Assembly (NCBI GenBank): GCA_964452145.1
Contig: CAYVLA010000006.1
Location: 16,409-80,408 of the forward strand
DNA from: Candidatus Hadarchaeota archaeon
GTDB taxonomy: Archaea > CAYQAE01 > CAYVLA01
Reading direction: 5' to 3'
DNA length: 64,000 bases
Notes under the pieces: generated by a model
The model's database searches: none
Seen by the model: only the letters and a program-made list of their open reading frames with translations
Told to the model about the DNA's origin: nothing
Shown: in pieces, positions 32,931 to 58,240 of the stretch
How the letters are laid out: every line of letters begins with the position of its first letter
Position numbering within the stretch: the stretch's first letter is position 1
Program-made: the position numbers and the translations under genes

Positions 32931-34256
32931 TCAGCGGCCGCTGGAATCCCGAGACACCGCTTCGCTGAGCCGGGTGCTCTCAACCGGCCTGTACAGTCTT
33001 CTTCTGACCATGAGACTCCACACAGTCACGCTGCAGATCAGGACTGTGGAGGAAACGGCGATCCATTCGAAGACGAATATCCACAGAAGGGTCCTTCTCT
33101 TCAGATCCGCAAGATGGTCCTCGATGATGGGATAGGCCTCCATGACCGCGCGGAGGAGTTCGGACGCCAATGCGATATCCCCTGTCAGGTACTTCCGCTC
33201 CGCTTCCGAGACGGCGGGGCCAAGGAGTCTGAGTTCCTCCTCGATCCGGTCCAGCCTAGCTCCCAACTTGTCAACGAATTCCATCGTCGACAGCGTCACC
33301 GACTTCCGCGTACGCACATCGATGAAGAGCTCCCTGGTCCTGTGGGCAAGCTCAAGGTCCTCGGGGGGAAGAATATCTGCAAGGAAGTAGATCTGGTTGT
33401 ATGTCAGGTCGGGCATGTACCTGTAGTTCTGGAATACGTGTTCGGGCGGATTGTGCCAGCCCTGTCCCAGCTGTAGCGTCCTTCCCGATCCATAGGTGCC
33501 TGTGACCAGAACCGGCGTATTCCTGCCCTTCCATATCGCGTGGACCACGCTGCCCGGCCTAGGCCATATGTCGCCGCCGTGGTTGCCCAGTACCTGCATG
33601 GGCTGTTTCTCGATATCGGGTAGGTTGAGTATCGGATCCTTCTTCACCACGGTCCAGTAGGTTCTTCCCATCTGTGATGGCACATCCGTGCCTAGATCGA
33701 CGTCGGCAGGAAACACGTCATAGAATGCAAGGTCCATCCAGATCCCGATCTGATTGCTGCCCGCACCGGCCCCCCAGAACATGAAGCAGATGAGCCCCAC
33801 ACCCAGCCCCTCTTCCTCGAGAGCTCGGTGAATGAAGCCCAGAACATTGCTCGGGATGATGGTGGGAGAGATGTTGTGGATTATCACGGCATCATAGCTC
33901 CCGTTCAGGGCCTGGTATGTCCTGGGCAGGTACAGCCGGGTCATCTTCTGGGCCACGGGGAGATCGATGAAGTAAACGTCGCAGGGCACGACGACCATGG
34001 AGAGCTTCGGCTCCGCCATGATCCACTGGAGCACAAGCTTGTTGGGCGGGAAGGAGGCATCCCCGAGATACAGGATCCTAGCCTTCAACGTGTGTTCATC
34101 GGTGCGCGAGAAGGCGGCGGTCAGACAGATCCAGGCCGGGCAGATGATGAATATGAGGGCAATGGCGGGTCTTGCGATCCGGGAGGCCACGCAGGGACAT
34201 CTGCCGGGAACCATAGATAATGATTTTCCGGATTCGAGCTGACGCAAGGTCCGCAT
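32931..34256 (-). CDS. Membrane-anchored GATase1-like surface protein, paralog 1 of 6
   Basis: Hydrophobic signal (IALIFIICPAWICLTAA), RLYLPRTY motif, helical bundle, and C-terminal LLWIFVFEW...WSLMVRRRLYRPVESTR. Start uncertain. Confidence 0.8.
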   Translation of the reverse strand: MRTLRQLESGKSLSMVPGRCPCVASRIARPAIALIFIICPAWICLTAAFSRTDEHTLKARILYLGDASFPPNKLVLQWIMAEPKLSMVVVPCDVYFIDLPVAQKMTRLYLPRTYQALNGSYDAVIIHNISPTIIPSNVLGFIHRALEEEGLGVGLICFMFWGAGAGSNQIGIWMDLAFYDVFPADVDLGTDVPSQMGRTYWTVVKKDPILNLPDIEKQPMQVLGNHGGDIWPRPGSVVHAIWKGRNTPVLVTGTYGSGRTLQLGQGWHNPPEHVFQNYRYMPDLTYNQIYFLADILPPEDLELAHRTRELFIDVRTRKSVTLSTMEFVDKLGARLDRIEEELRLLGPAVSEAERKYLTGDIALASELLRAVMEAYPIIEDHLADLKRRTLLWIFVFEWIAVSSTVLICSVTVWSLMVRRRLYRPVESTRLSEAVSRDSSGR

Positions 34257-34370
34257 GGCGTCCGGCAGACGTATTACGATACGAGCGACTGTTGTAGCAG
34301 GCAGGGCAGAAGACAATTCGGCGCTTTCCCAGCGTCAGCATTCGTCACCGAAATTCTGGCATTCACGGAT

Positions 34371-35498
34371 CTAGGGCGGCACCGGCCCCTTCGACACTCC
34401 CTGCCCATGCAGGACAAGTGAACGGATCTCCTTCACGCCCATTCCGGTGAGGCCAAGCTTCTCGACGGTTCTCCCTTCGCTCCAGTAGTCGGTGGCGTTC
34501 AGAAGAGACGCAACATGCACAGAAGCGTCTATCGTGGGAGTAGGCACGTTCAGCAGATCGCCCAGCGATGACATGGGAACCAGGCTCATCGGCACATCCT
34601 CAAACACGTAGCGATGGACGAGGCTGGACGGAGCTTTGACTCCTTGGTACCCAGGGGTTGCCTGTATGGCTTCGTAGAGAGATCTCCCGGGGGAATCGTA
34701 TGCAAGGTACAACCACTGCCGGGCCGTGTGCAGGTGGACGCCCAGAGCCTCCCCCAGAGCAACTCGTTCACGATCGAGGGACTCCAAGACCCTGGCGACG
34801 GACCGGGTCACTCCCTCGATGTAGAACTCGAAATCGGTGTGTTCGTCCTCGATTCGACCCGCATTGAGAATAGCGGTCCCGGGGTGGAAGATAGCGCCTA
34901 TGTTGTCCAGGCTTGTCTCCAATACGTTTGTTGCTGCGACAAACTGCGGGAACACCTTCCTGATGACCGCAAGGATCTGCGGGGTCTTGTGAGCCGGTAT
35001 GGCGGCCAGGGGGACCGAGTTCTTGATCCTGAGTATTCTGGCTCTGGCGAAGTCCTCGTGCCTCGAGACGTAGAGCAGGGTCTGCGTCTCGGCAACGATC
35101 ACATCGGCATCAACCTTTCTCTCTTCCCTTAAGACATGCAGGAACTCTACGGCTCCGAAGGTCCTGCCTGGGTTCAGAACGACGATCTGCCCGTCTTTCA
35201 GGTGCGATGCGCACTGTTCTGCCATGAACCTGTGACCCATCGCAGGGACGACGACCATAATGATGTCGGCGTCTTCCACGGCCTCCCCTATGTCGTGGGT
35301 TGCGTTGACTGCTGCCTGCCCTTTCACTGCACCGTCAACTTCGATCGCTCCGCGTGCCCGAATGTAGTCAATCCTTTCCGGACTGCGAGTGTAGACGCTC
35401 ACCGGATGGCCCATGATCGCCAGATGCCCTGCCATCGCCAGGCCTCCGTGACCAGCACCCAGCACAGCGAATTTGGGATTCTTCTCAGTTGCGGACAT
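34371..35498 (-). CDS. NAD(P)-dependent opine (octopine/nopaline-type) dehydrogenase family protein
   Basis: FAVLGAGHGG Rossmann motif, VLNPGRTFG, NIGAIFHP and RYVFEDVP motifs. ATG 35498 chosen. Confidence 0.9.
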   Translation of the reverse strand: MSATEKNPKFAVLGAGHGGLAMAGHLAIMGHPVSVYTRSPERIDYIRARGAIEVDGAVKGQAAVNATHDIGEAVEDADIIMVVVPAMGHRFMAEQCASHLKDGQIVVLNPGRTFGAVEFLHVLREERKVDADVIVAETQTLLYVSRHEDFARARILRIKNSVPLAAIPAHKTPQILAVIRKVFPQFVAATNVLETSLDNIGAIFHPGTAILNAGRIEDEHTDFEFYIEGVTRSVARVLESLDRERVALGEALGVHLHTARQWLYLAYDSPGRSLYEAIQATPGYQGVKAPSSLVHRYVFEDVPMSLVPMSSLGDLLNVPTPTIDASVHVASLLNATDYWSEGRTVEKLGLTGMGVKEIRSLVLHGQGVSKGPVPP

Positions 35499-35736
35499 AA
35501 CACGAGCCTGCAAGGTGCATATCTCCTTCCGGGCTAATATACATTCCCGGCCGGTGATCGGTGCCATGCTGTGCAACAGAATGGGCCATCGGACAGCGCG
35601 GTTAGGACTCAGACACTGCCGAGCAGATCTACTCACCCTATCATCGACGGCACCACGGACACACGTGGTGAGCCCGAGCTCAGCCGAATGACCCATTTGA
35701 CCGGAATCCGCGCGGATTGCCCCGCTCTCATTCCGC

Positions 35737-37398
35737 CTAGGAGATATCGCGCTGGACCCTTCTGATCCTTTCCCTTTCAGGCATTTTGTGAGCCGTCTTA
35801 GGGTCAACCGCGTAGCATGCTCCATCGATCATCCGTGTCTGGATCGAGCCCTTCGCATACTCGTTGCCCTTCAGATGCGGAGCGTCGAGGAGCCCCGTCT
35901 CAACCGCCCTCTTCAGAGTTGCGGGATCTGTCCACGGATCCTTCACATCCTCGTCGGCCAGACTCCTTATGGCCTCCAACAGAGTCCCCGCCTCTGCGAG
36001 CAGTTCCTCCTTCCGGGCCTGAACCCGAGGATCCAGCGTCACGTCGGGTAGTCCGCGTATGCAGTTGCTGATCACCCGTCTTGCGATCTTGCAGCTCTCC
36101 ACCACATCTTCGGGTGTTGCCGCGTGGTCGGCTTCGCAGTAGCCAACTACGTGGACTATCTCGGGTCCCAAGGCCATCTGCTGCATCACGGAGGATGCAA
36201 GGTGGCCCTTTGCCTCCGACATGTCTGATGGGTAGCTGAGCAGCCCCGTTCTGGTCTGCGTATGGATTGTGAAATCATCGTCAACCAAGCTCTGCGTTAT
36301 GTCCTTCTTGGCCAATTGCTTGGCCAAGTCCATCAAGAAGGACTCTCCAGGAGGCAGGTTGAACATGCGAGTTCCCACATAGTGCCGAACTCCCATCCTC
36401 TTGGCGTTGTATGCGCTTAGGAACTCGACCGCGACGGCGATCGTGTCAGAAGAAGACCGTAGCTCCCAGTGATGGGGCTCATTCAACTCCACCGGGATGT
36501 CCCTCTCGCCATGCCATCTCATCAGTTCTTGATGAACCCTGATGGCCTCCTCAAGCGCCAGCGGGCCTCGCTTGTCCAGCCTGCTGAACCAGAAGAGAGG
36601 TATGGCAGCGAAGCAGTTCCGGATGGTTTCGACCAGCATCTCAGCCATCTCGAACAGATCGCTGGTGCCTTGGTAGCATCTCAGCAAGGGATGATTGCCG
36701 CACCGGGTCGCACTGTATAGCTCGACGAAATCGTCGCGCGTTCTGAGAGGCACGCCTCCGGCGCCCTTCCTTTGCGGGTCCTGTCTATCGGGATGGAAGA
36801 GGTTCTCCTGTGCGTCCTGATCCGGTGCAATGGATATGATGTCGACCGTCTTGGACTCCGCGATCCTCCGGATTCCTCGGAAGGTCTCTTCAAGCGACGG
36901 GAGTCCGAAATGATGCCGGATTACCGGGTAAGGCCTCTTCCACTCAATCCTGTCGACCAAGGTACTCGGGTACGATTCCGAAGCGGGGCCTGCCCGCTCC
37001 TGGGTTCTCAGATAGGATATGACGTCATCCACGGGTTCGGTTCCGTCGAAGACTGCCTCGAAGATGCCCATATCCCTGGCAACCTTGGCTACAGGAGGGG
37101 TCCCGCCGAAGGCATATTTCCTTTCAAGCAGACCAGCCTCTCTGAGCGCGTTCTTCAGGGACGCCAAATGGTAGCTGCCCGATTCCGGGCTCAGCCTGTA
37201 GCTGACGCCGACTATGTAGGGGTCTGCCTCGCGGATTGCGCCCACGAGTTCCCTGGGAGACAGCGCGGCACCCAGGAAAGAGGTCCGGTACCCATACTGC
37301 TCCGCGAGGTTCAGGAAGTTGAAGATTCCGGCCACATGAATGTCCTCGCCTATGGCACCAGCAACAATGATTCGTCTAGGCTTCCGCCGGGCACTCAA
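35737..37398 (-). CDS. Single-chain cobalamin-dependent mutase-like enzyme (N-terminal B12-binding Rossmann domain + TIM barrel)
   Basis: EDIHVAG (DxHxxG), VSYRL and FGGT B12-domain motifs, followed by a catalytic-type barrel (PVIRHHFG, KGAGGVP, HHWELR, HIVHVV-like EIVHVVGYCEA). TTG start with AGGTGG RBS. Confidence 0.85.
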   Translation of the reverse strand: MSARRKPRRIIVAGAIGEDIHVAGIFNFLNLAEQYGYRTSFLGAALSPRELVGAIREADPYIVGVSYRLSPESGSYHLASLKNALREAGLLERKYAFGGTPPVAKVARDMGIFEAVFDGTEPVDDVISYLRTQERAGPASESYPSTLVDRIEWKRPYPVIRHHFGLPSLEETFRGIRRIAESKTVDIISIAPDQDAQENLFHPDRQDPQRKGAGGVPLRTRDDFVELYSATRCGNHPLLRCYQGTSDLFEMAEMLVETIRNCFAAIPLFWFSRLDKRGPLALEEAIRVHQELMRWHGERDIPVELNEPHHWELRSSSDTIAVAVEFLSAYNAKRMGVRHYVGTRMFNLPPGESFLMDLAKQLAKKDITQSLVDDDFTIHTQTRTGLLSYPSDMSEAKGHLASSVMQQMALGPEIVHVVGYCEADHAATPEDVVESCKIARRVISNCIRGLPDVTLDPRVQARKEELLAEAGTLLEAIRSLADEDVKDPWTDPATLKRAVETGLLDAPHLKGNEYAKGSIQTRMIDGACYAVDPKTAHKMPERERIRRVQRDIS

Positions 37399-37438
37399 GG
37401 TTCCACCTTGCTCTGATGATATTCCTCATATGGGTCCT

Positions 37439-38830
37439 TCACAGTTCACGTAAATACTTTTTCATCATCCTCAACGAAGAATCAGGAGCAGCGAAAGAGA
37501 GCAGACCCATTGCCCACATGATGTACTCCTCGTCCACAAACAGCCTGGGCCGTTTCGGTTTGAGCAACAGCGGGTTGTCGCCGCGAGAGCAGGCCTCCTC
37601 CAATATTCTACGCGGATTCCAGCTGTGAACTATCGGGCCTCCAGTGCCGATCACACTTCCGATGTTGCTCAGGTCTTTGCCCTCCTGTATCAGGAACGAT
37701 CCGGAGGGGCTGAACATCTCCCGCAGTTTCCCAACATGCCTTGTCACGGCAACATCGACAGCGACCCGTGCCAGGGCCTGGTCGATCTGGTAATCCTCCC
37801 TTGTTCGGGGAACCCGTCCCACGTTGAGAGAAAGCTCGGCTATTCTGTCTTTGAGTTCGTCCTCGCTGATTCCGAGACCAGTCATTTCCAGGATCTTGCT
37901 GGCACCGCACACCTTCAGAAGGGAATCCACGCTGACGCGCAACCCCATATCCCCCTCAACCGTTCTCTTGGCATAGGGCTCGGGGAGGCCTCTAAGGATC
38001 GTTCTGGAATGGGTTGGGTTTCCTTCGGATACGGAGTGGATATTCGTGGTCGCTCCCCCAACCTCGACCACCATCAGGTCTCCCAAGCCGGATTCCGCTT
38101 CAGTGCCATCTGCGAGCAACTCAGAGGCCTTCAACGTAGCCGATGGTGTGGGCAGAAGGATGTGAACGAGGTCCTCCACCTGGCTCAGTCCCTTGGCGCG
38201 GACTATCCGCTCCAAGAATACTTCCCGGATCATCTCCCTTGCCGGCTCTATGTTCAACTCCCCAAGCTCGGGCATCACGTTCTCCGTCTCCCTCACCTCT
38301 TTTCCACTCGATCGTAGAACGCCCGCCACATCATCCCTCGCCTCCTTGTTTCCGGCCACAATTACCGGCACTTGAAGCGTAGAGCCCGCAAGAACCCGGG
38401 CATTGTGCAGGATCACCTTCGTATCGCCCCCATCGATGCCCCCGGAAAGCAGTACGATGTCCGGCTCCAAGTCCTCTATCTCCCGCAGTTCACGGATCGT
38501 CAACCCGTAGGAAAAGGCAGCCAAGACCTTTGCTCCGGCACCTAAGGACGCCCTCCTTGCAGCCTCTGCAGTGAGCTCGGGAACGAGCCCGACGGCTATC
38601 ACCTTCAAGCCCCCCTTGGCGCTGCTGCAGGCGAGTTTGTGGTCGAAGCCATACGAGCTCAGCTCCGAGAACTGAGGGATCTGATCGAGGCTTTTTCTAA
38701 GGCCGTCCATTATGTCCGTGGTCGCTGTCGTCACTGCTTTCGATTCTGCAACTATCGTCTCCCTCTCCGGGTTCGCAATCACGACCTTGGTGAACGTGCT
38801 GCCGAGATCGATCAACAAGGCCAGACTCAA
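37439..38830 (-). CDS. glmL: GlmL/MutL-type ATP-dependent mutase reactivating factor (ASKHA fold)
   Basis: LLIDLGSTFTK, ACSSAKGGL, VEVGGATT, RTVEGDMG and VIGTGG motifs. GGAGGTG RBS before TTG. Confidence 0.88.
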   Translation of the reverse strand: MSLALLIDLGSTFTKVVIANPERETIVAESKAVTTATTDIMDGLRKSLDQIPQFSELSSYGFDHKLACSSAKGGLKVIAVGLVPELTAEAARRASLGAGAKVLAAFSYGLTIRELREIEDLEPDIVLLSGGIDGGDTKVILHNARVLAGSTLQVPVIVAGNKEARDDVAGVLRSSGKEVRETENVMPELGELNIEPAREMIREVFLERIVRAKGLSQVEDLVHILLPTPSATLKASELLADGTEAESGLGDLMVVEVGGATTNIHSVSEGNPTHSRTILRGLPEPYAKRTVEGDMGLRVSVDSLLKVCGASKILEMTGLGISEDELKDRIAELSLNVGRVPRTREDYQIDQALARVAVDVAVTRHVGKLREMFSPSGSFLIQEGKDLSNIGSVIGTGGPIVHSWNPRRILEEACSRGDNPLLLKPKRPRLFVDEEYIMWAMGLLSFAAPDSSLRMMKKYLREL

Positions 38831-38925
38831 AGACTTGACACCTCCTCAGCCAGTTCGGATACCCTCGAGAGATGGGGGCTCTTGGCGAACTCCTCGCTTC
38901 TGCGCTTGACTTCCTGCAACGACAA

Positions 38926-38933
38926 CGTTTATA
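38926..38933. promoter_or_regulatory. Candidate TATA box in the glmL/cobO intergenic region
   Basis: Reads TATAAA on the minus strand and TTTATA on the plus strand; direction ambiguous. Confidence 0.3.
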
Positions 38934-39351
38934 CGGATTTCCCTAGGACCTAGGAATATGGGACCCAGGCGCACCGGATTCGGGAAAGGCTCACATGACT
39001 TGATGGTACATGGGGCCCTCGAGCTGATCCTCGTCCCTCAATCCTAGGTCTGGACGTCCTTTTTGGACCTTGCCGCCCCACTTCAGCCTTCTTCGTTCTC
39101 CCTTAGAATGGCCGCCCTTGCGAAGGCGATGGCTGGCTGTCAACGCTGTTAAGGATCATTCGCTCTCGCAGGCGTTCAAGGAGATCACGGGTGCGATGCC
39201 GCGTCCACGGCGCGGAGGGACTCTCCGGAAATGACACGCGAACTCGCACGCCACGCAGAAAGGGCCGGCAGGCCTTCTCCCGAAGTGGCCCCTTGCTTGG
39301 AGAAGCCAAGTAGGGAATCGGTTTATCTTCTGCAACGCGGTATATGTCCAC

Positions 39352-39882
39352 ATGCCCACGCAGAGGCTGGAGAGAGGCTTGGTCCAGGTGTACACTGGTG
39401 ACGGAAAGGGTAAGACCACAGCCGCCTTCGGTTTGGCGCTGCGAGCCATAGGACATGGTATGAGGGTATACATGGTGCAATTCCTGAAGAGGCAGGACTC
39501 CGGGGAGGTGGTCGCAGCAAAAAGGCTCTTTCCCGACCTGCAGATAGCCCAGTATGGCCGACCGGGCCCCATGGATGGAATCTTCTTCGAGGATCATCGA
39601 TTGGCCAAGGAAGCCCTGCAGCGTGCAAGAGAAGTTGTATGCAGCGGGGATTACGACGTAGTCATATTGGATGAGGTTAACGTCGCACTGCACTTCCGAT
39701 TGCTCAAATCATCCGACGTACTGGAGCTGATCTCCCAGAGGCCTGACAACGTCGAACTCGTGCTCACCGGTCGGCACGCCCCCGACGAACTGATCTCGGC
39801 CGCCCAACTGGTGACGGAGTTCGTGGAAGTAAAACATCCTCACTCACGGGACATGCAAGCACGAAGAGGCATAGACTACTGA
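39352..39882 (+). CDS. cobO: Cob(I)yrinic acid a,c-diamide / cob(I)alamin adenosyltransferase
   Basis: GLVQVYTGDGKGKTTAAFG, VQFLK, VILDEVN, ELVLTGR and ARRGIDY motifs. Confidence 0.95.
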   Translation: MPTQRLERGLVQVYTGDGKGKTTAAFGLALRAIGHGMRVYMVQFLKRQDSGEVVAAKRLFPDLQIAQYGRPGPMDGIFFEDHRLAKEALQRAREVVCSGDYDVVILDEVNVALHFRLLKSSDVLELISQRPDNVELVLTGRHAPDELISAAQLVTEFVEVKHPHSRDMQARRGIDY

Positions 39883-40188
39883 TGCTCCGGTGCCAACGCA
39901 GTGATGATTTCTGGAACAATTATCAGAATCATGTCATTCGAGAAATCCGTCCATCAAGGTAACTGCATACCTCACTCTCCTCACTGCTGACCAGCAACAG
40001 AACAGGAGAGCCATCTTCCAGCAACACCCCACGCCCAATCTGGCCTGGGACATCATCGCCCCAAGTCGATGAAGAGTTGTCCTAGGCCTTTGGCCGATCT
40101 CGGGTAGGGCAGACGGCTGGTGGGCTGGTCTGTTAACTATATTAGACGGGTGCCGCATCTCTCAAGCCGGGGCGGAGGAACGACAGAC

Positions 40189-41388
40189 ATGCGTCACAGG
40201 AAACATGCCCACACCCGCGTCTCCCTGACAATCGCTCTCCTGACGATGCCAGGACTCCTTCCGGTCTGCTTGGGAGCCGAGATCCCGAGGGTATACTACA
40301 TCGGGGACTGCAAGCCCACCACGAGCCCGATAAACATCGTGAGCGATGATCCGGCTCTCCACGTCGTTGCGGTGCCGGCGGTGATCGGCACGGTCTGGTG
40401 GACCTCCAAGGAGGTGGCACGCGCCCTGAGACTGTATATGCCTAGGAACTACGAGGAACTGGTCGAGACCAGGGTGCTGATCCTCCTCAGCGATGTCAAG
40501 GCCGAGAACCTGCCCGGCTTCCACATCGACTGGTTCTCGAAGGCGGTTAGACAGGACGGCATGTCGCTCATGATGTTCGGCGGGATATCCTCCTTCGGCG
40601 GGCATGCCGGATTCCCCTCAGCATGGGGCCAGACGAGCGTGGGGGAGATCCTCCCCGTTTCCCTCATCCTTGAGGCAACCGGGCCGGGCCCGTGGACGCC
40701 GGTGGTGACTTCTCCGGACGACCCGCTCATGCTCGCGTTTCCGTGGGATTCTTGTCCGCCCTTCTACGGGTACAACAGGGTGACCCGGAAGGAGGGAGCC
40801 AAGCTGCTTGCCCAGACCAGCAACACGGCGGAACCCTTCATGATCGTATGGGATGTTGGGCCCGGGCGGAGCTTCGCCTTCTGCACCGACTGGACGCCGG
40901 ACTGGGGTAAATCCTTCCAGCTCTGGGACCCATACATCGACTTCTGCGTCTACTCGATATACTACACGATGGGCAGGATGATACCGCGGGATATCGAGCT
41001 GGTCCACGTAGTCAGGTCCGAGATGCTCGAGAACCGGGTGAGAACGCAGGTGCTGATCTCGCTGTTGGCACTAGTCGATCAGATGGGCGGCAACGTCCTT
41101 CCGTTGGAGGAGAAGATGAGGGAAGCAGCACTCGTCCGTCGTCAGGCAGACAGCCAATACGTCCTCCAAGAATACGGTTCGGCCCTGACAACGGTCAAGC
41201 AAGCCAACTCCGACCTTGCGGCGATCGAGGGTGAGGCCGTCAGGGTCAAGGCAAGAGCCATGCTGTGGGTATGGATCGTGGAGTGGCTTGTGGTGACATC
41301 GACCCTCATGATCACCGGCGTGGCTGTCTGGAGCCTGATGGTGAGAAGAAAGCTGTATCGCGAAGTAGTGACGACGAGAAGCCCATGA
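40189..41388 (+). CDS. Membrane-anchored GATase1-like surface protein, paralog 2 of 6
   Basis: Signal peptide, RLYMPRNY, GMSLMMFGGISSFGG...W...EILPV (DUF1355-like), and C-terminal AMLWVWIVEW...WSLMVRRKLYREVVTTR. GGAGG RBS. Confidence 0.85.
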   Translation: MRHRKHAHTRVSLTIALLTMPGLLPVCLGAEIPRVYYIGDCKPTTSPINIVSDDPALHVVAVPAVIGTVWWTSKEVARALRLYMPRNYEELVETRVLILLSDVKAENLPGFHIDWFSKAVRQDGMSLMMFGGISSFGGHAGFPSAWGQTSVGEILPVSLILEATGPGPWTPVVTSPDDPLMLAFPWDSCPPFYGYNRVTRKEGAKLLAQTSNTAEPFMIVWDVGPGRSFAFCTDWTPDWGKSFQLWDPYIDFCVYSIYYTMGRMIPRDIELVHVVRSEMLENRVRTQVLISLLALVDQMGGNVLPLEEKMREAALVRRQADSQYVLQEYGSALTTVKQANSDLAAIEGEAVRVKARAMLWVWIVEWLVVTSTLMITGVAVWSLMVRRKLYREVVTTRSP

Positions 41389-41520
41389 TTGCTTGGCGCA
41401 CGTTCAGCCACTCCTCGGGCTTCAGACGACAGGAGTTCTCACACATCGGGAGGATTCCTGGAAGTGCAGCCCAGAACTTGTCCGCACAGAGAAGCTCAAC
41501 GTCGTGGACCACGGATGCCA

Positions 41521-45066: not shown

Positions 45067-46398
45067 TTAGAGTTGTCTTGTCACCCCCGTCTCCCTGTAC
45101 AGCCGCCGTCCAACCATCAGGGTCCACGTCGCAACGGCCACCAATCCGAACGTGCCCGTGACGGCACACCACTCCACCGCGTAGACCCAGAACAGGGCTC
45201 TTCCCTTCAAAGCGACCGCCTTCTTCTCGATCGTGTAGATCAGGTCAAAGGCCTCCCGGAGACGGGTCTGACATGACTCGAAGTCCTGAGAGAGATAGTC
45301 CCTTCCCGCCCGATCCACGAGGGAGTCGGCCCCCGCGACCTGTTGCTGCAGGCTCTGGCTGCTTGCGCCGAACTTCTCTACGAAATCCAACAAAGAGTAC
45401 AGAACCCCAACCCTGAGGACGTAGTCCCTGAACCCGCTCCTAAGCCTTTGGACAAGCAGTGGGTCCGATGGCAGCTCCCTTCGGAGCGAATACCAGACTA
45501 TGTTGGTGAAGATGCCCAGCGCGTATCTCTCCTGGCCGTCCCCTCCCCACCAGTATCCCCACATGGGACTCACGAACTGGTCCCCCGTTGCCCAGATCCT
45601 GGAGTTCCTGTCCCCAAATTCCCAAGACAGCAACAACGGGCAACTGGTCTTGCCCAGCTTGAAGGGTATGTCTTTTGCTCTGGCCCATTCCGTGGCGCCT
45701 TCCTTGGCGAAAAGTAGGCGGGTATAACCAAAGGGCTTGACCTTCTCGATTCCAAGGGCCTTGTAGGGCCTGATCACGGGGGCAAGCGATCGGTCGTCCA
45801 CGATCTCGAGGTTGTAGGCTTCTATGTTATCGTGCGAAAGGGAGATGAACCTCTCCTGATCGTGCGGGAAGGCCTTTGACAGGTCCGAGCTCATCCACGG
45901 GACATACATCTCGGGGTACGCGCTCTGAGTAAAGCCGAGGGCACCGACCCCCCGCTCCTTCAAGGCTCGATACATCCACTGGATCTGAATATCATCATGG
46001 TAGTCCAGGAACGGCTGATCGTAGACGAAGAAGTCGTAGACCAGAAGGGCCTCGTACGACCGGGGCATGTATATGCGGATGAACCTGCGAAGCTGCTCAA
46101 TGCTGTAGAGGCCGGCGTGGATGGACCGGGAGACGACCAGCGTCCCCTCCAAGGACGGCTCGGCCCTGAAGAAGTCTGATAAGGGGCTGTAGCTGGGGTC
46201 GACCTGCCCCATGGCGAGCACCTTGATGACGTCCTGACACCATGCTCCAAAAGGAACGATCAGGACCACAAGGACGACGGCAGAAGCCCCTATGCCGAAG
46301 CCCATGCTCATGAAACAGAGGGCTTCCCTTAAATATCGCGAGGCAGCACATCTCTGCACAAGGCCTAGCAAGGGCGAGCCCGTCTGAACGGCCTGCAT
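45067..46398 (-). CDS. Membrane-anchored GATase1-like surface protein, paralog 3 of 6
   Basis: RIYMPRSY, LDFVEKFGA and C-terminal ALFWVYAVEW...WTLMVGRRLYRETGVTR. ATG 46398 lies immediately after the AbrB-like stop. Confidence 0.82.
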   Translation of the reverse strand: MQAVQTGSPLLGLVQRCAASRYLREALCFMSMGFGIGASAVVLVVLIVPFGAWCQDVIKVLAMGQVDPSYSPLSDFFRAEPSLEGTLVVSRSIHAGLYSIEQLRRFIRIYMPRSYEALLVYDFFVYDQPFLDYHDDIQIQWMYRALKERGVGALGFTQSAYPEMYVPWMSSDLSKAFPHDQERFISLSHDNIEAYNLEIVDDRSLAPVIRPYKALGIEKVKPFGYTRLLFAKEGATEWARAKDIPFKLGKTSCPLLLSWEFGDRNSRIWATGDQFVSPMWGYWWGGDGQERYALGIFTNIVWYSLRRELPSDPLLVQRLRSGFRDYVLRVGVLYSLLDFVEKFGASSQSLQQQVAGADSLVDRAGRDYLSQDFESCQTRLREAFDLIYTIEKKAVALKGRALFWVYAVEWCAVTGTFGLVAVATWTLMVGRRLYRETGVTRQL

Positions 46399-46399
46399 T

Positions 46400-46624
46400 T
46401 TACCAGCTTCTGGTGTCGCCGGTTTCTGTGACTCGGCCTCCTCTTCTTTCTTCATCCGTTGCCTGGTACGGTATGACCTTGAGATAGCCGCTTCTTTTCA
46501 CAACGTAAAGCTGCCGCGTCGGGCCAACTTCGGCCTGCCGCCAGTCAGGGGGTAACAGCAGACGCCCCCCCCGGGAATCCATCATCTTCTTCACTTCGAC
46601 ACCATATGACACGATCATCACCAT
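46400..46624 (-). CDS. AbrB/MazE/SpoVT-type DNA-binding protein
   Basis: EVKKMMDSRGGRLLLPPDWR...LYVVKRSGYLKVIP matches the swapped-hairpin D..GR..LP..WR pattern. Confidence 0.65.
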   Translation of the reverse strand: MVMIVSYGVEVKKMMDSRGGRLLLPPDWRQAEVGPTRQLYVVKRSGYLKVIPYQATDEERRGGRVTETGDTRSW

Positions 46625-46803: not shown

Positions 46804-47820
46804 ATGCACAGCAAGGAACGGGTCATCCGAGCCATAGAGTTCGACGGACCCGATAGGATGCCCCACATGCATTCCTACAGGTATGCCACCCTCAGAAGAC
46901 ACGGGGTCGACTTCGCTGCGATCCTTGCCCGATATCCATCCGACTACTCACAGGCCACGCCCTCCCGGGACACCCTCGAGGGATCCGACAGAGGCTCTAC
47001 CACGGACGAGTGGGGGATCACCTGGGTCAAGCTAAACGATGGATACATGGGGCAGCCCAAGGGCCACCCGCTGGAGAACTGGGACAACTTCGAGGACTAC
47101 CGCATCCCGGACCCAGACCCATCCAAGTCCGTGTTCTTGAGGCACCACAGGGGTGATGCCGGGGGTATTGCGTCAGAGGACAAGTACGTCTGCATGTACG
47201 GTGGCAACCTTTTCGAGAGGCTGCAGTGGCTCCGAGGGATGAGAAACGTCTTCGTCGATCTGCACACCAAGAACGCAAGGCTTCTCGAGCTTGCGGACGC
47301 CGTAGTGGACTATGACATAGCCCTATCGAAGATATGGTGTGAGCGCGGCGCGGACGGTATCGTTTTCTCAGACGACTGGGGCACCCAGGATGCGCTGATG
47401 GTCAGCCCGTCCCTCTGGAGACGAATCTTCAGGCCTCGCTACCGCAAGATGTTTTCCGCAGTCCGCAGGCTGGGAGCGAAGGTGCATTTCCACAGCGACG
47501 GATTCATCCTGAATATCGTCTCGGATCTCATCGATCTGGGCGTAGACGTCCTTAACCCCCAGCTGAACGTCCATAACATGGACGAGCTGGAACGCATCTG
47601 TGGCGGAAGGATCTGCATAAGGGGCGGGCTGGACAGGCAGACCGTCCTACCCTACGGATCGCCGGCGCAAGTCCGCAGACACGTGCTCGAAGCGATCCAA
47701 CACTTCGCGGTCTACGACGGGGGATGGATTGCCTGCGGAGAGCTTGGACCCGATGTTCCCCTGGCCAACTGCGAGGCCATGATGAAGAGCTTCTTCGAAC
47801 TAGGGAAGTACCGTCCATGA
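46804..47820 (+). CDS. Uroporphyrinogen decarboxylase / MT2-like TIM-barrel protein
   Basis: DEWGITW, LFERLQWLRG, DDWGTQDALMVSP, HFHSDG and LDRQ..LP.G motifs. Confidence 0.88.
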   Translation: MHSKERVIRAIEFDGPDRMPHMHSYRYATLRRHGVDFAAILARYPSDYSQATPSRDTLEGSDRGSTTDEWGITWVKLNDGYMGQPKGHPLENWDNFEDYRIPDPDPSKSVFLRHHRGDAGGIASEDKYVCMYGGNLFERLQWLRGMRNVFVDLHTKNARLLELADAVVDYDIALSKIWCERGADGIVFSDDWGTQDALMVSPSLWRRIFRPRYRKMFSAVRRLGAKVHFHSDGFILNIVSDLIDLGVDVLNPQLNVHNMDELERICGGRICIRGGLDRQTVLPYGSPAQVRRHVLEAIQHFAVYDGGWIACGELGPDVPLANCEAMMKSFFELGKYRP

Positions 47821-52101: not shown

Positions 52102-52556
52102 TCCGTGCACCCGGCCCAGGCGCAATTCGAATCCCGTGAATCTTGTTCATTGAAGCATTGGAGCCTACGATCACTATCCGAAGGGGACTCCGTAGCAGGG
52201 TGACAGTGAGCCCATCATCCCATGGAAGAGATGCTTTACCACCACCGCTCTCGACATTCCCTCGGCAAAACGTCACAAGACGATATACGTCGTCATAAGA
52301 AAGATAAGATGGCCTCGCATCACTCTAACAGCAAGACCCGGTTTTGGAGGGGTCTCTGGCACATGAGCATGAGATTAGTCTCGGTAATGGCTTTGGCCCT
52401 GGGGGAGGCCAAGATGGCAAGGACGAGATCATGGTGGCGAGGGATGATGATCGTATGATCATAGCCACCGATCTCAACGGGGAAACGCGCATCAGGGAAC
52501 CGGAGGGGTCCGTGCAGTTCCCCGGCAGAGAGGGACGAGAAGGTCTCCGTCGCGAC

Positions 52557-53786
52557 ATGCTTCAGGTCAAGACCGTCGGATCGCCAAGAAGGCAGCACTC
52601 CCTGCTCATGCTTGTTCTCATCTCGGTCTTTCCCGTAGGACTGTGCACACCCAAAGTCGACCCGGCAACCGGAAGGATTCGCATGCTTATGATAGGCGAG
52701 ACCGCGTCATCCCATCAAGATGCCACATACTTCCTCCTGTCCGATCCGATGGTGAGCCTCACTGTGATACCAGCCGGGGATGTCGCCAATGTCGAGACCA
52801 GCAAACGCTTCGTACGCATCTACGTTCCAAGAACGCGGGAGAAGCTCGTCTCAAACTACGACGCAATAGAGCTCTTCGACTTCGTACCCTACATCCTCGA
52901 GGATAAGCACTTCCACTGGATGCACGATGCCGTCGAGGATGAGGGGCTCGGCCTTTCCCTAGTCGAGATGGGGTGGTACGGGGTCACGGACTGGACAGGC
53001 AACGATGCCGAAGCGTGGATGGCCACGGTGCTGTACCAGGCCTATCCGGTTGATCTGGTTGTCGGCAAGCAGAACGCCCTCACACCATACATGGACGTCG
53101 TGTCCGGCCATCCCCTCGTCAATCTTCCCGGCCTTGAAAAGTTCGCGCTCACGGGGGTCGGGAGCCACGGCATCCAGATGGCCAGGGAGGGATCCACGGT
53201 CCATACGGTGTGGCGGACCGGGAGGGAGGACGCCATCGTGGGAGGCACCTACGGGTCGGGCACCACCCTCATCATCCCGATGGGCTGGGACAATGTTCCC
53301 GATGCAACGGAGAGAAACTGGGACTACTACATCGATCTCGTACTGAACCATGCATGCTATGTGGCCAACGTTCCCCTGCCTGATGATCCGAACCTGGCGC
53401 GGGCACTCCGTCTCGGCTTCACCGAATACCGGGCCAGGAGGTCGCTTGCGTCATCCCTCATCGACTTCATAGGCAGGTTCGGTGCCAATACGCTGAAGGT
53501 CGAGAAACTCATCATGGACTTAGAGGAGGAAAGAAGGGTGGCCGAGCAGCTCTATGTCCAAGGCGACCACAGCGCCGCCTGGGAAATGCTGGACCGGGTG
53601 CTGGTGAAATTGCAGGCCGTTTCTCAGGAATCGATGAAGCTCCGGCAGAGGGCTCTCCTCTGGATATACCTAATCGAGTGGCTGGCCATCATGGCCACTC
53701 TCCTAGCATCCACAATGGTTCTCTGGACGTTAATGGTCAGACGGAGGCTGTATAGGCAAGTCGCAGCAACTCGGTCGACCCTCTAG
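52557..53786 (+). CDS. Membrane-anchored GATase1-like surface protein, paralog 4 of 6
   Basis: Signal peptide after ATG 52557, RIYVPRT, LIDFIGRFGA and ALLWIYLIEW...WTLMVRRRLYRQVAATR. Confidence 0.85.
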   Translation: MLQVKTVGSPRRQHSLLMLVLISVFPVGLCTPKVDPATGRIRMLMIGETASSHQDATYFLLSDPMVSLTVIPAGDVANVETSKRFVRIYVPRTREKLVSNYDAIELFDFVPYILEDKHFHWMHDAVEDEGLGLSLVEMGWYGVTDWTGNDAEAWMATVLYQAYPVDLVVGKQNALTPYMDVVSGHPLVNLPGLEKFALTGVGSHGIQMAREGSTVHTVWRTGREDAIVGGTYGSGTTLIIPMGWDNVPDATERNWDYYIDLVLNHACYVANVPLPDDPNLARALRLGFTEYRARRSLASSLIDFIGRFGANTLKVEKLIMDLEEERRVAEQLYVQGDHSAAWEMLDRVLVKLQAVSQESMKLRQRALLWIYLIEWLAIMATLLASTMVLWTLMVRRRLYRQVAATRSTL

Positions 53787-54106
53787 CAGTAGGATCCGAG
53801 GGAACCGCCTCTTGCCTCCGATCCCGTGGCTATCTTTCCGAATGCACAGAAGATGGCTTCTTCGAAGCCATTGAGCAAAGGAGAACCTACATGTGAGCCT
53901 TTCGGCCGCAAGTGCTTCGACCAGGCCACAGATAGATGAGGTGGGCTGCGCCGGGGCATGAAACGATCCTCAGAAGGAAAGGCTTATCTGCGAGAGACCG
54001 ACATGGACAACGACAGCCCCGAGATACGGGATGGTCCCGTCGCCAACCCACGACCATGAAACGCTTTTATCGTACGCAACCCAATTGGGAACGGGATTCC
54101 GAATTG

Positions 54107-54670
54107 ATGATACTCGCGGTGCACGGAAGCGCCCGCCGGGGCGGGAACACCGACATTCTCCTTGAACACGCAATGAAGGGTGCAAGAAGTGAGGGAGCTA
54201 CAGTGCAGCTCATCAGAGTGGCGGAACTAAGGATCGCGGGGTGCAGAGGCTGTGAAGGGTGCAGAGAGACCGGACGGTGCGTCCAACAGGACGACATGCA
54301 GGATTACTACGACGCTGTCCTTGCCGCCGACGGCTACATATTTGCCACGCCAATCTATGGGTGGGGGCCGAGCGGACAGATCAAGCTCTTCCTGGACCGG
54401 CTCTATTGCCTAGTCGGACTTCTGCAGCGAAGAGCCAAGAAGGAGCGCAAGTGCGCAGCGCTGGTAACCGCCTTTGGGGCATCCGATCCGTCCACATCGG
54501 ATGAGACCAGTCGGATGTTCAGAAAGATCTGCAGACATGTCCGGGTGGATTTCGTGGGTGAACTGCGGGTGTCGGCACAGGAGAAGGGGGAAGTCTCGCG
54601 CAAACCCCAAGAGCTAGAGAAGGCCGAAAGACTTGGTCAAGAACTAGCCACCGCCATCAAGCGGCCCTAG
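54107..54670 (+). CDS. Iron-sulfur flavoprotein (Isf) / NADPH-dependent FMN reductase family
   Basis: GSARRGGNT, CxxCxxC-x5-C (CRGCEGCRETGRC), ATPIY and KLFLDR motifs. Confidence 0.92.
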   Translation: MILAVHGSARRGGNTDILLEHAMKGARSEGATVQLIRVAELRIAGCRGCEGCRETGRCVQQDDMQDYYDAVLAADGYIFATPIYGWGPSGQIKLFLDRLYCLVGLLQRRAKKERKCAALVTAFGASDPSTSDETSRMFRKICRHVRVDFVGELRVSAQEKGEVSRKPQELEKAERLGQELATAIKRP

Positions 54671-54918
54671 GACCGAGTCTCCCTCGGAAACCTCCTTACC
54701 CAGCCCCACATCCCAGCCGGGCCGATACGTACCACTTCAAGAACAACGATCGCGTGTCCTCCCGGCCAAAGTCCCCAGTGTCGGTGTATCCCCCCTTCGC
54801 CTCGGTTTCAGACCTACTGATCCGATGAAGTGGAGTGGACCCGGATACCCCCATCCCGGTTCGGTGATTCCTCAGCCGACCAAGGGGGACAAGCCAGATC
54901 CGCCTCCGCTCAACAAAC

Positions 54919-54966
54919 TGGAACGCCAATGGGCTAGAACGCCAATGGATTGGAACGCACGGTGGT
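54919..54966 (+). repeat. Three imperfect 16-bp tandem direct repeats
   Basis: TGGAACGCCAATGGGC / TAGAACGCCAATGGAT / TGGAACGCACGGTGGT, located about 90 nt upstream of GTG 55055. Confidence 0.7.
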
Positions 54967-55054
54967 CCTGGGCCCTCGTCTGTTCCATGCAAGGATTATC
55001 TGCCGTTTCAGGAATACCCGCCCTCCAGAAAAACGGCAAGGGAGGTGAAAAAAA

Positions 55055-55519
55055 GTGAAAGGCAAGATCCTGGCAACAACGATTATTCTCATGTTAGTGT
55101 TCGCTGGCCATGCTTACGCCGATGTCGTGATCCGCAGCAACGATACAAAGGGCGAGGAACCCGAGCCCCCCGATGAGACCATCAACGACAATGCTACCGA
55201 GGCGGAGCCGTGGCTGATAGCGCCCAGTCCCAACGAAGAAGCCAAGGATAGCGACATCGTGGTGTCCGTGGACGAGCAAAGCGAGGAAGAAGCCATGCCC
55301 AGAAATGCCACCACCGACGAACGTGAGACCAGCAACGGGAAAGGTGAAGCACCCGAGGATGACGCAACCATCGGAGTGGATGACTGGCTCATTTCGCCCC
55401 AGGGAGAGGTGGACGACGCCATCTCTGGTGGGAATTCCAGCGTCTACTTATTCGCCGTCCCGCTTGTCTGCGCCGCTTCGGTCGCCTCAATCATAGGCGT
55501 TAGGCGCAGACGCCATTAG
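55055..55519 (+). CDS. Acidic, low-complexity, C-terminally anchored surface glycoprotein
   Basis: GGAGGTGA RBS, signal peptide (ILATTIILMLVFAGHAYA), D/E-rich body with 4 N-x-S/T sequons, and C-terminal TM + RRRRH. Confidence 0.85.
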   Translation: MKGKILATTIILMLVFAGHAYADVVIRSNDTKGEEPEPPDETINDNATEAEPWLIAPSPNEEAKDSDIVVSVDEQSEEEAMPRNATTDERETSNGKGEAPEDDATIGVDDWLISPQGEVDDAISGGNSSVYLFAVPLVCAASVASIIGVRRRRH

Positions 55520-55526
55520 ATCACCA

Positions 55527-55560
55527 GAGGGGGCTTTGCACCCCCTCGCCTTCTTTTTCT
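55527..55560 (+). terminator. Hairpin + oligo-T terminator
   Basis: GAGGGGG-ctttgca-CCCCCTC followed by TTCTTTTT, 8 nt after the stop at 55519. Confidence 0.65.
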
Positions 55561-55638
55561 TAGGAATGTCCTCACATCCGATCCGGCCATGTTGGGCGGT
55601 CCCTAGTGGACTTCTCCCAGCAACGACCCACCCTCGCT

Positions 55639-56877
55639 TCATCCTCCAACAAGCCTGGTTGTCGCGATCTGGCGATAGAATCGTCTCTTCACCATGAGCG
55701 TCCACAGAATGGAAGCCGAGCCAACGCAGGTCCCGGTGATGACCAGATACTCGATGACGAAGACCCACAGAAGGACGCGGTCCTTTGCCCTCAGGACCTC
55801 GTCTAGAAGCGCAAGGGCTTCGGCCTTGGCCTCGTCGAGTCCTGACAGGGCCGACCCATAATCCCCGGAGATGTAGAGATCGCTCGCTGCCAGCCAGCGG
55901 CCATCTATCTCGGCAAGTCTGAGCCCATAGGACGCGGTGGTTGCACCGAATTTCTCCACCCAGTCCATCAGCGACAGTATGATCCCCCTCTGCGTCCTGT
56001 ACTCCCAGAAGCCATCCCTTGCCCGGGCAACGACCACGACGTCCTCAGGCAGCGCTCTGCCCGCGGAGTAGAGGATCAGATTGGACATTACGTCCATCGC
56101 CCAAGGGTTCTCGGACAACCCGTGAATGCTTGCATGCACATCGCCCCACCAGCTGTGGTCAAGGTCGTCAGCCGCCACCCAGCAATGGCCACCGTTGTCA
56201 TCGTACTTCCATTCCAGGATCCACGGTCCGTATTGTCTGGGCACGAGGTTGCCCCAGGCCCTCGTCCCGGTGCGAGGGGCGAGGAATCCACAACCTATTC
56301 CTACAGCCCTTTCAACGCCGAGCTCTACAAAAGGGGTGAACACGGGAGGGAGGCCTTTGACGAATTCGACCCGATACGACCTCGTGGTCCAGGCCATGTT
56401 GATGTTTTTTGACATGTCGTGGGGAACGACCTGTCCCAGAATCGATGACTGAACCGAGTAGAACTCCGGCCCGAAGGTGAAGAAGGATCCGGCCACTCCA
56501 TCTCGGATTGAGTCGTACATCTGCTGGGATTGCTTGCCCGAGAACACCGAGACGTCCGCGTCCACGAAGAAGATCATGGAGAAGCGCCTCAGATCCTCGT
56601 CCGTCCGAGGGAAGTAGAGCCTGACATACCTGGTCTTCATCTCCTCGGTCAGCTTCCCGGCAGGTCCCTCCCTCGTCCTTATCGACACATACTCAAACAG
56701 GGGATCGCTGTCGAACAGAAGGGGCAAGGGGCATTCCTGCGGGTAGACCTCACCTATGAGCAGCATGTGGAGCCTGCGACCATCTCCTCCTGCTCCGGCG
56801 ATTCCCGCCTCGATCTGCAACACCAAGAGCAGGCCGATGCTCCAGAAAACCATCTTCAGCTCCGAACCGTTTCGCAT
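55639..56877 (-). CDS. Membrane-anchored GATase1-like surface protein, paralog 5 of 6
   Basis: Signal peptide, RLYFPRT, LMDWVEKFGA and VLLWVFVIEY...WTLMVKRRFYRQIATTR. Confidence 0.85.
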   Translation of the reverse strand: MRNGSELKMVFWSIGLLLVLQIEAGIAGAGGDGRRLHMLLIGEVYPQECPLPLLFDSDPLFEYVSIRTREGPAGKLTEEMKTRYVRLYFPRTDEDLRRFSMIFFVDADVSVFSGKQSQQMYDSIRDGVAGSFFTFGPEFYSVQSSILGQVVPHDMSKNINMAWTTRSYRVEFVKGLPPVFTPFVELGVERAVGIGCGFLAPRTGTRAWGNLVPRQYGPWILEWKYDDNGGHCWVAADDLDHSWWGDVHASIHGLSENPWAMDVMSNLILYSAGRALPEDVVVVARARDGFWEYRTQRGIILSLMDWVEKFGATTASYGLRLAEIDGRWLAASDLYISGDYGSALSGLDEAKAEALALLDEVLRAKDRVLLWVFVIEYLVITGTCVGSASILWTLMVKRRFYRQIATTRLVGG

Positions 56878-56983
56878 GGATCGACTTCACCAAGTCTGGA
56901 CTTCAGTACTCCCCATGCCTCTGACCCGCGCATCCCGGAGACCGCATGAGACAGAGCCACCATGGGCACCCGCTACGCCAGGC

Positions 56984-58216
56984 TCACTCCTTCGCCGCCG
57001 CGAGTCTGGTCATCTCCACCTTCCGATACAGCTTGCGCCTGATCATGAGCATCCAGAGAACGGATCCCGACATGAAGAGAGCGGACGATGTCACCAGCCA
57101 CTCTATCAGGAATACCCAGAGAAGTGCCTTGTTCTTCTCCCTTCTTGCCACCTCCTCCGCCGCGGGGAATCTGACCAGGGCAGAGCTTATCGACGCCTGG
57201 CTCTCCAAGAAGGCATGCTCAAGATACCGGTGGGTGGCCTCGGCGTAGATCTCCTCAAGGGGGATCATCTCTCGCTCTATGCTTTCGGTGTTGGCCCCGA
57301 ACTTGTCTATGAAGTCCTTCAGCGAGATCAGCACCCTCATCCTGGTCACGAACTCGGCGAAGTCCGACTTCACTCTGTGGAAAACCTCCACATCATCGAT
57401 GAGCTCGGTGTTCGCAAGCCAGAAGATCATGTTCATAACGATCTCGGGTGAGTACTTGTTTTCACCCGTGACGCCGGTGGGGTATGCAAGCCACCCTCCC
57501 GGGAAGGGCGACCCGATCGTCATGGCACGACCCTTGCCATACCACCAAGCGACAAGGTAGGGCTCCTTCTGTGGGTAGTTGCCGCCCTGCCAGGCTAGAA
57601 CGCCTGAACCATCCCTGGCAATCACTAATCTGCTTAGGCCTCCGCGCGCGTTCTCCACGCCGAAAGGCACGAAAGCGGTGAGTATGGGTTCGGGATGGTT
57701 CTTGTTGATCTGGACCCAGTGAGACTCTATCTGGGCCCAAGCGCTGTATCGCGCCGTCACCGCGGGCGCATCGTTGGGAAATGCCTCCCAGGCCACGCCG
57801 GATGCCCATGCCTGCGGCACGCCAGCTATCTGGCTGAAGACGCTTCCATCATTCATTCCGCCCGATCCATCCCAGATGGCGTCGCGGATCCACATGTCTT
57901 GCTTAGGAGTGATGAGTTCGTAGTTGGGCTTGCAGAGGATCAGGACGTCATAGCTCGTCATCTCCTGGTATCTGCGGGGAAAGTAGAGACGGATCAGCTT
58001 GACGAGTTCCGAGTCAGGGACCCGGCCGTCCCAGGTCACGATCACCTTGTACTCCACAGAGGGCTCCCCGTCAAAAAACATCCTCAAAGCATCGACTCGA
58101 CTGTCCTGTACCAGTAGCAGCAGCCTTATCCTTTCGGCTCCGAAGCCGGGCGAGAAGAACACAAGCGTCATGGCGACGGCCAAGCAGAAGACAGCCCTGA
58201 CGGCACGGCAATGCAT
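56984..58216 (-). CDS. Membrane-anchored GATase1-like surface protein, paralog 6 of 6
   Basis: Signal peptide after ATG 58216, RLYFPRRY, LKDFIDKFGA and ALLWVFLIEW...WMLMIRRKLYRKVEMTR. Confidence 0.85.
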   Translation of the reverse strand: MHCRAVRAVFCLAVAMTLVFFSPGFGAERIRLLLLVQDSRVDALRMFFDGEPSVEYKVIVTWDGRVPDSELVKLIRLYFPRRYQEMTSYDVLILCKPNYELITPKQDMWIRDAIWDGSGGMNDGSVFSQIAGVPQAWASGVAWEAFPNDAPAVTARYSAWAQIESHWVQINKNHPEPILTAFVPFGVENARGGLSRLVIARDGSGVLAWQGGNYPQKEPYLVAWWYGKGRAMTIGSPFPGGWLAYPTGVTGENKYSPEIVMNMIFWLANTELIDDVEVFHRVKSDFAEFVTRMRVLISLKDFIDKFGANTESIEREMIPLEEIYAEATHRYLEHAFLESQASISSALVRFPAAEEVARREKNKALLWVFLIEWLVTSSALFMSGSVLWMLMIRRKLYRKVEMTRLAAAKE

Positions 58217-58240
58217 GACGCACGCAACGACGGCAAGCCA

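Follow-up and report, generated by a model that had tools for sequence, protein, structure and literature searches.

A conserved stalk-membrane-tail module in a very large, lineage-restricted family of predicted archaeal surface proteins

We analyzed a 64,000-nucleotide stretch of the genome of a Candidatus Hadarchaeota archaeon (GenBank assembly GCA_964452145.1, contig CAYVLA010000006.1, positions 16,409 to 80,408 of the forward strand; hereafter the window) that encodes six divergent proteins with the same C-terminal module, in which a conserved stalk segment leads into a transmembrane (TM) helix and a short basic cytoplasmic tail. The six genes belong to a family of ~190 copies in this genome. 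We slightly favor the view that the module, intrinsic to this family of lineage-specific type I surface proteins, serves assembly or docking and is not a portable sorting tag. A sequence-only reading of the window had proposed that the tail is recognized by a shared membrane partner, as in sortase-like systems, or mediates assembly; the sorting half of that proposal was not supported, and the shared-partner or assembly half is the best available reading, although it is not demonstrated.

Scanning all six frames of the window with the regular expression [RKG][RK][RK][LF]YR-x3-5-TR yielded exactly six matches, each at the C terminus of an open reading frame (ORF) of 412-480 residues. The tails attributed earlier to these genes, with the pattern LWxxxxEW-TM-RRxLYRxVxxTR, had been quoted correctly, and the module is present in all six. 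Copy 1 (32931..34316, minus strand; 461-residue ORF) displays the predicted layout of signal peptide, GATase1-like ectodomain, stalk, TM segment, and tail, and its module, DLKRRTLLWIFVFEWIAVSSTVLICSVTVWSLMVRRRLYRPVESTR, occupies 32970..33107 (minus strand). Copy 2 (40120..41388, plus strand; 422-residue ORF; module at 41242..41379, plus strand) was the sole window copy to exceed the Pfam PF07090 threshold (3e-17). Copy 3 (45067..46455, minus strand; 462-residue ORF) has its module at 45076..45213 (minus strand), and copy 4 (52344..53786, plus strand; 480-residue ORF with a called product of 443 residues) at 53637..53774 (plus strand). The last two are in tandem: copy 5 (55639..56877, minus strand; 412 residues; module at 55654..55791, minus strand), where EY replaces EW, and copy 6 (56984..58330, minus strand; 448 residues; module at 57005..57142, minus strand). 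The six proteins aligned end to end with pairwise identities of 22-31%, and the residues invariant among them (W, E, W, L, M, R, Y, R, T, and R) were clustered in the final 45 positions.

The genome assembly (4.03 Mb in 261 contigs, with 7% estimated contamination) gave 4,126 genes by crude longest-ORF calling. When a 48-column hidden Markov model (HMM) built from the six window tails was run against all stop-to-stop frames of the genome (E < 1e-3), 199 ORFs matched, the bulk of them with scores of 50-88 bits, and 188 of these also matched an HMM of the ectodomain. The other 11 were frames of 50-249 residues located at contig ends or beside a frameshifted piece of ectodomain. The six copies first noticed are thus real, but the scale had been underestimated: the family amounts to 181-189 of the 4,126 genes, or 4.6% of genes and 6.2% of coding residues, and is the largest paralog cluster of the genome, the second largest having 49 members. 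Its copies are spread over 100 contigs with a slight excess of adjacent pairs (14 versus a chance mean of 7.9). Despite the fragmented and partly contaminated source assembly, the abundance is not peculiar to it, being equal in three cleaner sister genomes. Apparent extra domains in ORFs of 520-640 residues were rejected as upstream read-through of stop-to-stop frames. One otherwise intact copy (contig C42:25549-26790, plus strand) has a stop just inside the TM helix, after ...ALFWAYAIQW, and is either an anchorless secreted variant or a young pseudogene.

Conservation was quantified in the 158 full-length paralogs of this one genome. The final ~45 consensus columns carried 2.7 bits/column versus 1.4 elsewhere, and in a subsample of 18 sequences the values were 2.24 in the module and 1.18 in the rest. 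No such excess was seen in fam8, a neighboring family with a similar layout that is described below, where the anchor gave 1.24 versus 1.31 bits/column. Within the module, the frequencies of the consensus residues were A11 78%, K15 84%, A18 88%, L19 82%, W21 99%, Y23 79%, E26 91% (Q 8%), and W27 93%; these were followed by V30 79%, T33 74%, G38 85%, W42 88%, L44 84%, and M45 97%, and then by R47 79%, R48 91%, L50 78%, Y51 93%, R52 84%, V54 80%, T57 96%, and R58 85%. Conservation peaked at both membrane boundaries and in the cytoplasmic tail.

Such a pattern could in principle be an artifact of recent duplication or gene conversion among the copies, as the sequence-only reading had itself warned, and the many copies in one genome with 14 adjacent pairs would suit that explanation. 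The paralogs are, however, only 22-31% identical overall. At four-fold degenerate sites in tail codons for identical residues, 37% of comparisons were identical versus 33% expected from base composition, and in none of 11,935 paralog pairs did nucleotide identity in the tail exceed 0.9. With the synonymous positions of the tail saturated and no pair above that value, gene conversion, recent duplication, and a DNA- or RNA-level element are excluded, and the conservation of the module is the product of purifying selection on the protein. Orthologs told the same story: two sister genomes each contain a single ortholog of copy 5 (72% identity), the next best matches being at 46% and then at 37% or less, and copy 4 has graded orthologs at 70-44% before a paralog plateau near 30%. 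Since orthologs stand apart from paralogs across genera, the expansion is old and each paralog has been kept individually. The duplication explanation is refuted and retains practically no probability.

In 153 of the 158 copies, a basic n-region and a hydrophobic stretch ~15 residues before the ectodomain have the characteristics of a Sec-type signal peptide, and we assign them as such from these sequence features. An AlphaFold2 model of copy 4, calculated from a 68-sequence alignment (predicted local distance difference test score, pLDDT, 86.5), comprised an alpha/beta domain (residues 75-305), helices at 312-341 and 347-368, and an unbroken helix at 372-429 spanning both stalk and TM segment. 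The model thus has a three-helix stalk whose final helix is continuous with the TM helix. The consensus before and into the start of the TM segment is A..LKDRALLWVYxIEW, and the segment itself is 26 residues long, with Trp/Tyr belts at both ends and small residues (TGT...G) mid-helix. As W21 and W42 span 21 residues, E26 lies ~5 residues inside the outer boundary; the Glu that had been reported within a long TM segment is indeed present in 91% of copies (Gln in 8%), but it is situated near the interface rather than mid-membrane. Substitution of Gln for Glu retains hydrogen bonding and loses the charge. The cytoplasmic end reads RRRLYREVxxTR and is followed by a median of 4 residues, so that 12-16 conserved residues lie beyond the basic cluster; RRRLYREVATTRL is the family cytoplasmic-tail peptide.

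The alpha/beta domain of the copy 4 model has a class-I glutamine-amidotransferase-like fold. Its top Foldseek matches were 2gk3 and 3soz (probability 1.00; TM-score 0.58-0.69 by target length; E = 8e-11), with GATase and GH42-type domains among the later matches. A profile of 68 family members matched the PF07090 structures 2gk3, 3rht, and 3soz at E = 2e-13 to 5e-11. With the Pfam PF07090 model, copy 2 scored 63.4 bits against a cut-off of 27, and the other five window copies gave no match at E <= 0.1. The near-invariant ectodomain residues of the 68 members comprised RxYxPRT, G, W, LPxD, and FGAN; these columns (G, P, R, Y, W, D, F, and A) included no conserved Cys, His, or Ser, and in the elbow, with consensus gG..SfGg, the Ser was weakly conserved. 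Given that no Cys/His/Ser triad is found among the near-invariant residues, the ectodomain is not a conventional amidotransferase, and assignment to the catalytic class-I glutamine amidotransferases was rejected because the conserved Cys-His-Glu triad is missing. We classify the ectodomain as a predicted non-catalytic, GATase1-like member of the PF07090 superfamily; the ectodomains are probably binding modules and not enzymes.

We compared the number of N-x-S/T sequons with the expectation from per-sequence shuffles. Across the genome, the family ectodomains contained 20 sequons versus 150 ± 12 expected, a depletion of ~7-fold, and the six window copies contained 3 in total. Members from other genomes and metagenomes (n = 121) gave the same result, with 17 sequons observed versus 119 ± 10 expected. 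Control patterns in the ectodomains had ratios near 1 (NxA/G, 1.04; QxS/T, 0.90), and the sequon ratio of cytoplasmic families was 0.77-0.97. Sequons were enriched in fam4, a second neighboring family (2.6-fold), in fam8 (2.2-fold), and in an FG-GAP surface family (1.4-fold), and STT3/AglB homologs are encoded in the genome. A cytoplasmic protein would be neutral in this respect, and the depletion consequently provides independent support for an extracytoplasmic location. These counts indicate selection against N-glycans on the ectodomains. Trp, Tyr, and Phe are abundant in these domains as well, a composition that, together with the scarcity of sequons, is compatible with binding surfaces, possibly for glycans. 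Membership in the tail-anchored class of proteins inserted by Get3/TRC40 was rejected in view of the signal peptide and of the sequon avoidance, which implies exposure to oligosaccharyltransferase.

The family is narrowly distributed. The closest named homolog is a hypothetical protein from "Theionarchaea archaeon". Among five genomes of the phylum, each of four from one family had between 94 and at least 150 tail matches, and the fifth had zero. A survey of 201 archaeal genomes, with 139-247 first-look candidates in each positive genome, confined the full-length family to four genomes of one family-level clade; the other 197 lacked it and gave merely weak partial matches to the core (E > 1e-9) in proteins of 517-964 residues. 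A profile built from 53 tails was then scored against 1.84 billion representative proteins, and 421 carriers were obtained at E <= 1e-3, of which 381 also passed E <= 1e-10. Among the best 150 of the 421 matches, the ectodomain was present in 56 of 57 long proteins; the exception, P0091 (1,526 residues, 15 stretches), was dismissed as a low-complexity repeat artifact. The sole carriers outside the family encountered in those 150 were two short proteins from metagenome ERZ23498357 (L001 739-1428 and L002 237-785), in which the family tail is joined to a different N-terminal part, either DUF2334/deacetylase-like or truncated beta-lactamase-like. Both lack a signal peptide, each is alone on one contig (0.8 or 1.6 kb), and they probably represent chimeric assemblies or fusions in decay. 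The literature that we searched on Theionarchaea, PF07090, DUF1355, and COG5426 contained no description of the family or its tail; neither the stalk-TM-tail module nor the copy number, the restriction to one clade, or the avoidance of sequons is reported there.

This one-family distribution bears directly on the suggestion that the module is a new sorting motif comparable to PGF-CTERM, PEP-CTERM, or GlyGly-CTERM. C-terminal signals of the archaeosortase/exosortase type (PGF-CTERM, PEF-CTERM, PEP-CTERM) were reportedly described by Haft et al. in 2012. Such CTERM signals occur on several unrelated families, carry a Pro/Gly signature that usually follows a linker, and end soon after the basic cluster. 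The module resembles them in being C-terminal, in its gross order of motif, hydrophobic helix, and Arg cluster, and in the presence of archaeosortase-family genes in the same genomes. One of two unclassified enzymes might then cleave the module and re-anchor the ectodomain. In the genome of the window, these enzymes are encoded at C3:12294-13388 (minus strand) and C38:25044-26570 (minus strand); both pass the signature model TIGR04178, fall below every named-subfamily cut-off, and retain the Cys, Arg, and His motifs, and one of them has 73-79% identical orthologs in this clade only. A check for a co-distributed peptidase, as had been advised, found two archaeosortase-family genes in all four tail-bearing genomes and none in the fifth genome, which also lacks the tail, but this co-distribution reflects a single lineage and hence one evolutionary event.

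The anatomy of the module speaks against such processing. The tail was found on a single homologous family, all non-fragmentary carriers in the genome sharing the ectodomain. It has neither a Pro/Gly signature nor a low-complexity linker, the predicted stalk helix instead running straight into the TM segment, and the protein does not end at the basic cluster but goes on for a conserved cytoplasmic extension of 12-16 residues, giving ~46 conserved residues compared with ~25 in CTERM signals. The curated CTERM models were unmatched, as were all Pfam and NCBIfam anchor models, so the module does not correspond to an existing anchor entry. Nor did tail-only peptides match any NCBIfam model at E <= 10; this is a weak negative, as the one PE-type control peptide tested gave none either, and rejection of the sorting signal rests on module anatomy and the restriction to one family rather than on the peptide scan. 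No family gene adjoins either enzyme. Furthermore, the two enzymes can be explained by canonical PE-TM-RRR signals that unrelated proteins carry. The FG-GAP protein at C61:3-1514 has such a C terminus, ending ...ILIPETALGLLAVLALPLLRKR, and other large, unrelated exported proteins with a PE/PD-helix-Arg/Lys ending are encoded at C77:4705-6045, C18:37698-39149, and C55:13151-15868. These PEF/PEP-CTERM-like proteins are the likelier archaeosortase substrates, and we regard an archaeosortase-type function of the family module as quite improbable. For annotation purposes, the module deserves a model of its own, apart from the CTERM sorting signals.

Recognition of the TM helix by an intramembrane protease of the rhomboid or site-2 type, with cleavage either shedding the ectodomain or generating a signal, is about equally improbable in our estimation. 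Helix-destabilizing small residues are conserved mid-membrane (T31, G32, T33, and G38, the last at 85%), each genome has two rhomboid genes, and the C42 copy that stops inside the TM helix suggests that a secreted form is at least tolerated. Rhomboids are nevertheless universal and also occur in the genome that lacks the family, making them non-discriminating, and conservation is strongest in the juxtamembrane region and the tail, where an anchor that is shed and discarded would not need it.

The main competing explanation dispenses with a partner altogether and attributes the conservation to stop-transfer and topology (a positive-inside RRR cluster), to rigid coupling of the stalk, or to interaction with lineage-specific lipids. 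Aromatic belts at both interfaces and the RRR cluster are generic topogenic features, and the continuity of stalk and TM segment in one helix means that stalk packing constrains the start of the TM segment. The same explanation gains from the conservation around the TM helix, which showed no significant single-face periodicity (95-120 degrees, p = 0.07-0.16). Topogenic needs, in contrast, leave the near-invariant Y51, V54, T57, and R58 and the Glu/Gln position unexplained, and fam8, with the same layout in the same membranes, has an anchor no more conserved than its ectodomain. Because fam8 manages with an ordinary anchor, the module of the main family is a real anomaly. We consider the partner-free explanation unlikely, though clearly less so than either proteolytic one.

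A docking or assembly role is preferred on indirect evidence: selection on both juxtamembrane zones, the polar Glu/Gln, the short and strongly conserved motif in the cytoplasm, and the difference from fam8. By its predicted architecture, each protein is exported via its N-terminal Sec-type signal peptide and displays its ectodomain on the three-helix stalk, the final helix of which continues into the membrane and leaves the tail in the cytoplasm. The juxtamembrane positions on either side of the membrane, together with the polar Glu/Gln, may fix the helix in a specific interaction with another protein, be it a paralog or a common partner in the membrane or cytoplasm, and ~190 distinct outer domains would in this way share a single membrane setting. 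The sole partner candidate to emerge from the gene neighborhood is fam4, with its DRRL-TM anchor. Several observations weigh against this interpretation. Lacking significant helix-face periodicity, a simple one-sided helix-helix interface is not demonstrated; the family genes are mostly solitary and less operonic than average (24-27% versus a background of 36%, with ~50% co-oriented with their neighbors); merely ~12% of main-family copies adjoin fam4; and the co-restriction of fam4 to the same genomes is a single evolutionary event that carries little weight.

Only two families, both unnamed, were strongly enriched as neighbors of the main family, and the window contains one member of each. 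The fam4 member (58441..59286, plus strand) has an N-terminal TM anchor and two predicted beta-sandwich domains, is sequon-rich, and has no Pfam match; the fam8 member (59386..60261, plus strand) has a predicted signal peptide, a GATase1-like domain, a coiled stalk, and a variable C-terminal TM anchor. The two are often paired in the order f4-f8. Of 36 fam4 members, 22 directly adjoin the main family (p = 3e-16), and 15 of 19 fam8 members lie within two genes of it. The fam4 family, whose N-terminal DRRL-TM anchor is conserved, is restricted to the same four genomes, and its adjacency to the main family recurs in two sister genomes. A structural model of fam4 (pLDDT 81) showed two beta-sandwich domains; assignment of this fold to adhesin or transglutaminase sandwiches was dropped, as Foldseek TM-scores were 0.13-0.16 with probability <= 0.25. 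Comparison of profiles with hhalign (probability 88%; E = 3e-6; 213 columns) showed fam8 to be distantly homologous to the main-family ectodomain. The two families share the signal peptide, GATase1-like domain, coiled stalk, single C-terminal TM segment, and loci, but fam8 has 19 copies compared with ~190, its anchor is variable, and its sequons are enriched and not depleted.

As for other neighbors, sulfatase and UroD-like genes showed a mild excess within two genes of family members. Operon linkage to flanking catabolic genes was rejected, there being no tie to particular enzyme operons. A same-strand cluster (34371-38830, minus strand) comprising opine-dehydrogenase-like, B12-binding mutase-like, and MutL-type reactivase-like genes precedes copy 1, which lies 55 bases downstream. 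Other large paralog families in the genome include 49 UroD-like proteins, 39 GFO/IDH/MocA oxidoreductases, 38 ABC ATPases, and 35 sulfatases, along with 22 xylose-isomerase-like TIM barrels, 16 FG-GAP propellers, and 11 BNR sialidase-like proteins; the window sites listed with such families are 46804-47820 (plus strand) and 60376-61530 (minus strand). Judged by gene content, these families mark the host as a polysaccharide-degrading heterotroph.

Taking the docking interpretation one step further, the ~190 paralogs might constitute a receptor repertoire, in which unglycosylated, aromatic-rich ectodomains would bind different extracellular ligands and all would dock, by way of the invariant Glu-containing TM helix and the RRRLYREVxxTR tail, to one shared adaptor in the membrane or cytoplasm. 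The ligands would most plausibly be glycans, the host being a heterotroph rich in sulfatases and glycosidases, and the glycosylated fam4 and fam8 proteins might be co-components. This more specific proposal, which draws on analogy, is tentative and has a probability only marginally above that of the partner-free explanation.

Approximately one gene in twenty-two of this uncultured sediment archaeon is thus devoted to one undescribed family of surface proteins, and the same holds in its sister genomes. So large an investment must reflect a central feature of the dealings of these cells with their environment. The invariant 46-residue membrane module, the replicated sequon avoidance, and the stable one-to-one orthologs offer handles for experiment. 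For the PF07090 domain, the family provides a context that, according to its sequence features, is clearly extracellular and non-catalytic. PF07090 (GATase1_like, formerly DUF1355; COG5426) has the same fold as the ectodomains and is homologous to them by profile, with function unassigned in both. Its solved representatives, 2GK3 (STM3548), 3SOZ (STM1381), and 3RHT, are soluble proteins of ~250 residues that their depositors call cytoplasmic, whereas the main family is predicted to be exported and possesses a three-helix stalk, a conserved TM segment and tail, and ~190 copies.

With respect to the module, the nearest likeness is to receptors that dock to adaptors, such as the plant receptor-like proteins (RLPs) with SOBIR1, the natural killer and myeloid receptors with DAP12, and the integrin alpha subunits with their GFFKR clasp. 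We know of no equivalent system in archaea. The comparison is one of function, as there is no homology between these receptors and the archaeal family. In both cases, many paralogs have divergent ectodomains, and the most conserved parts are the TM segment, a polar residue within it, and a short membrane-proximal motif; by this analogy, the family with fam4 and fam8 might represent an archaeal counterpart of RLP-SOBIR1 or DAP12-coupled receptors.

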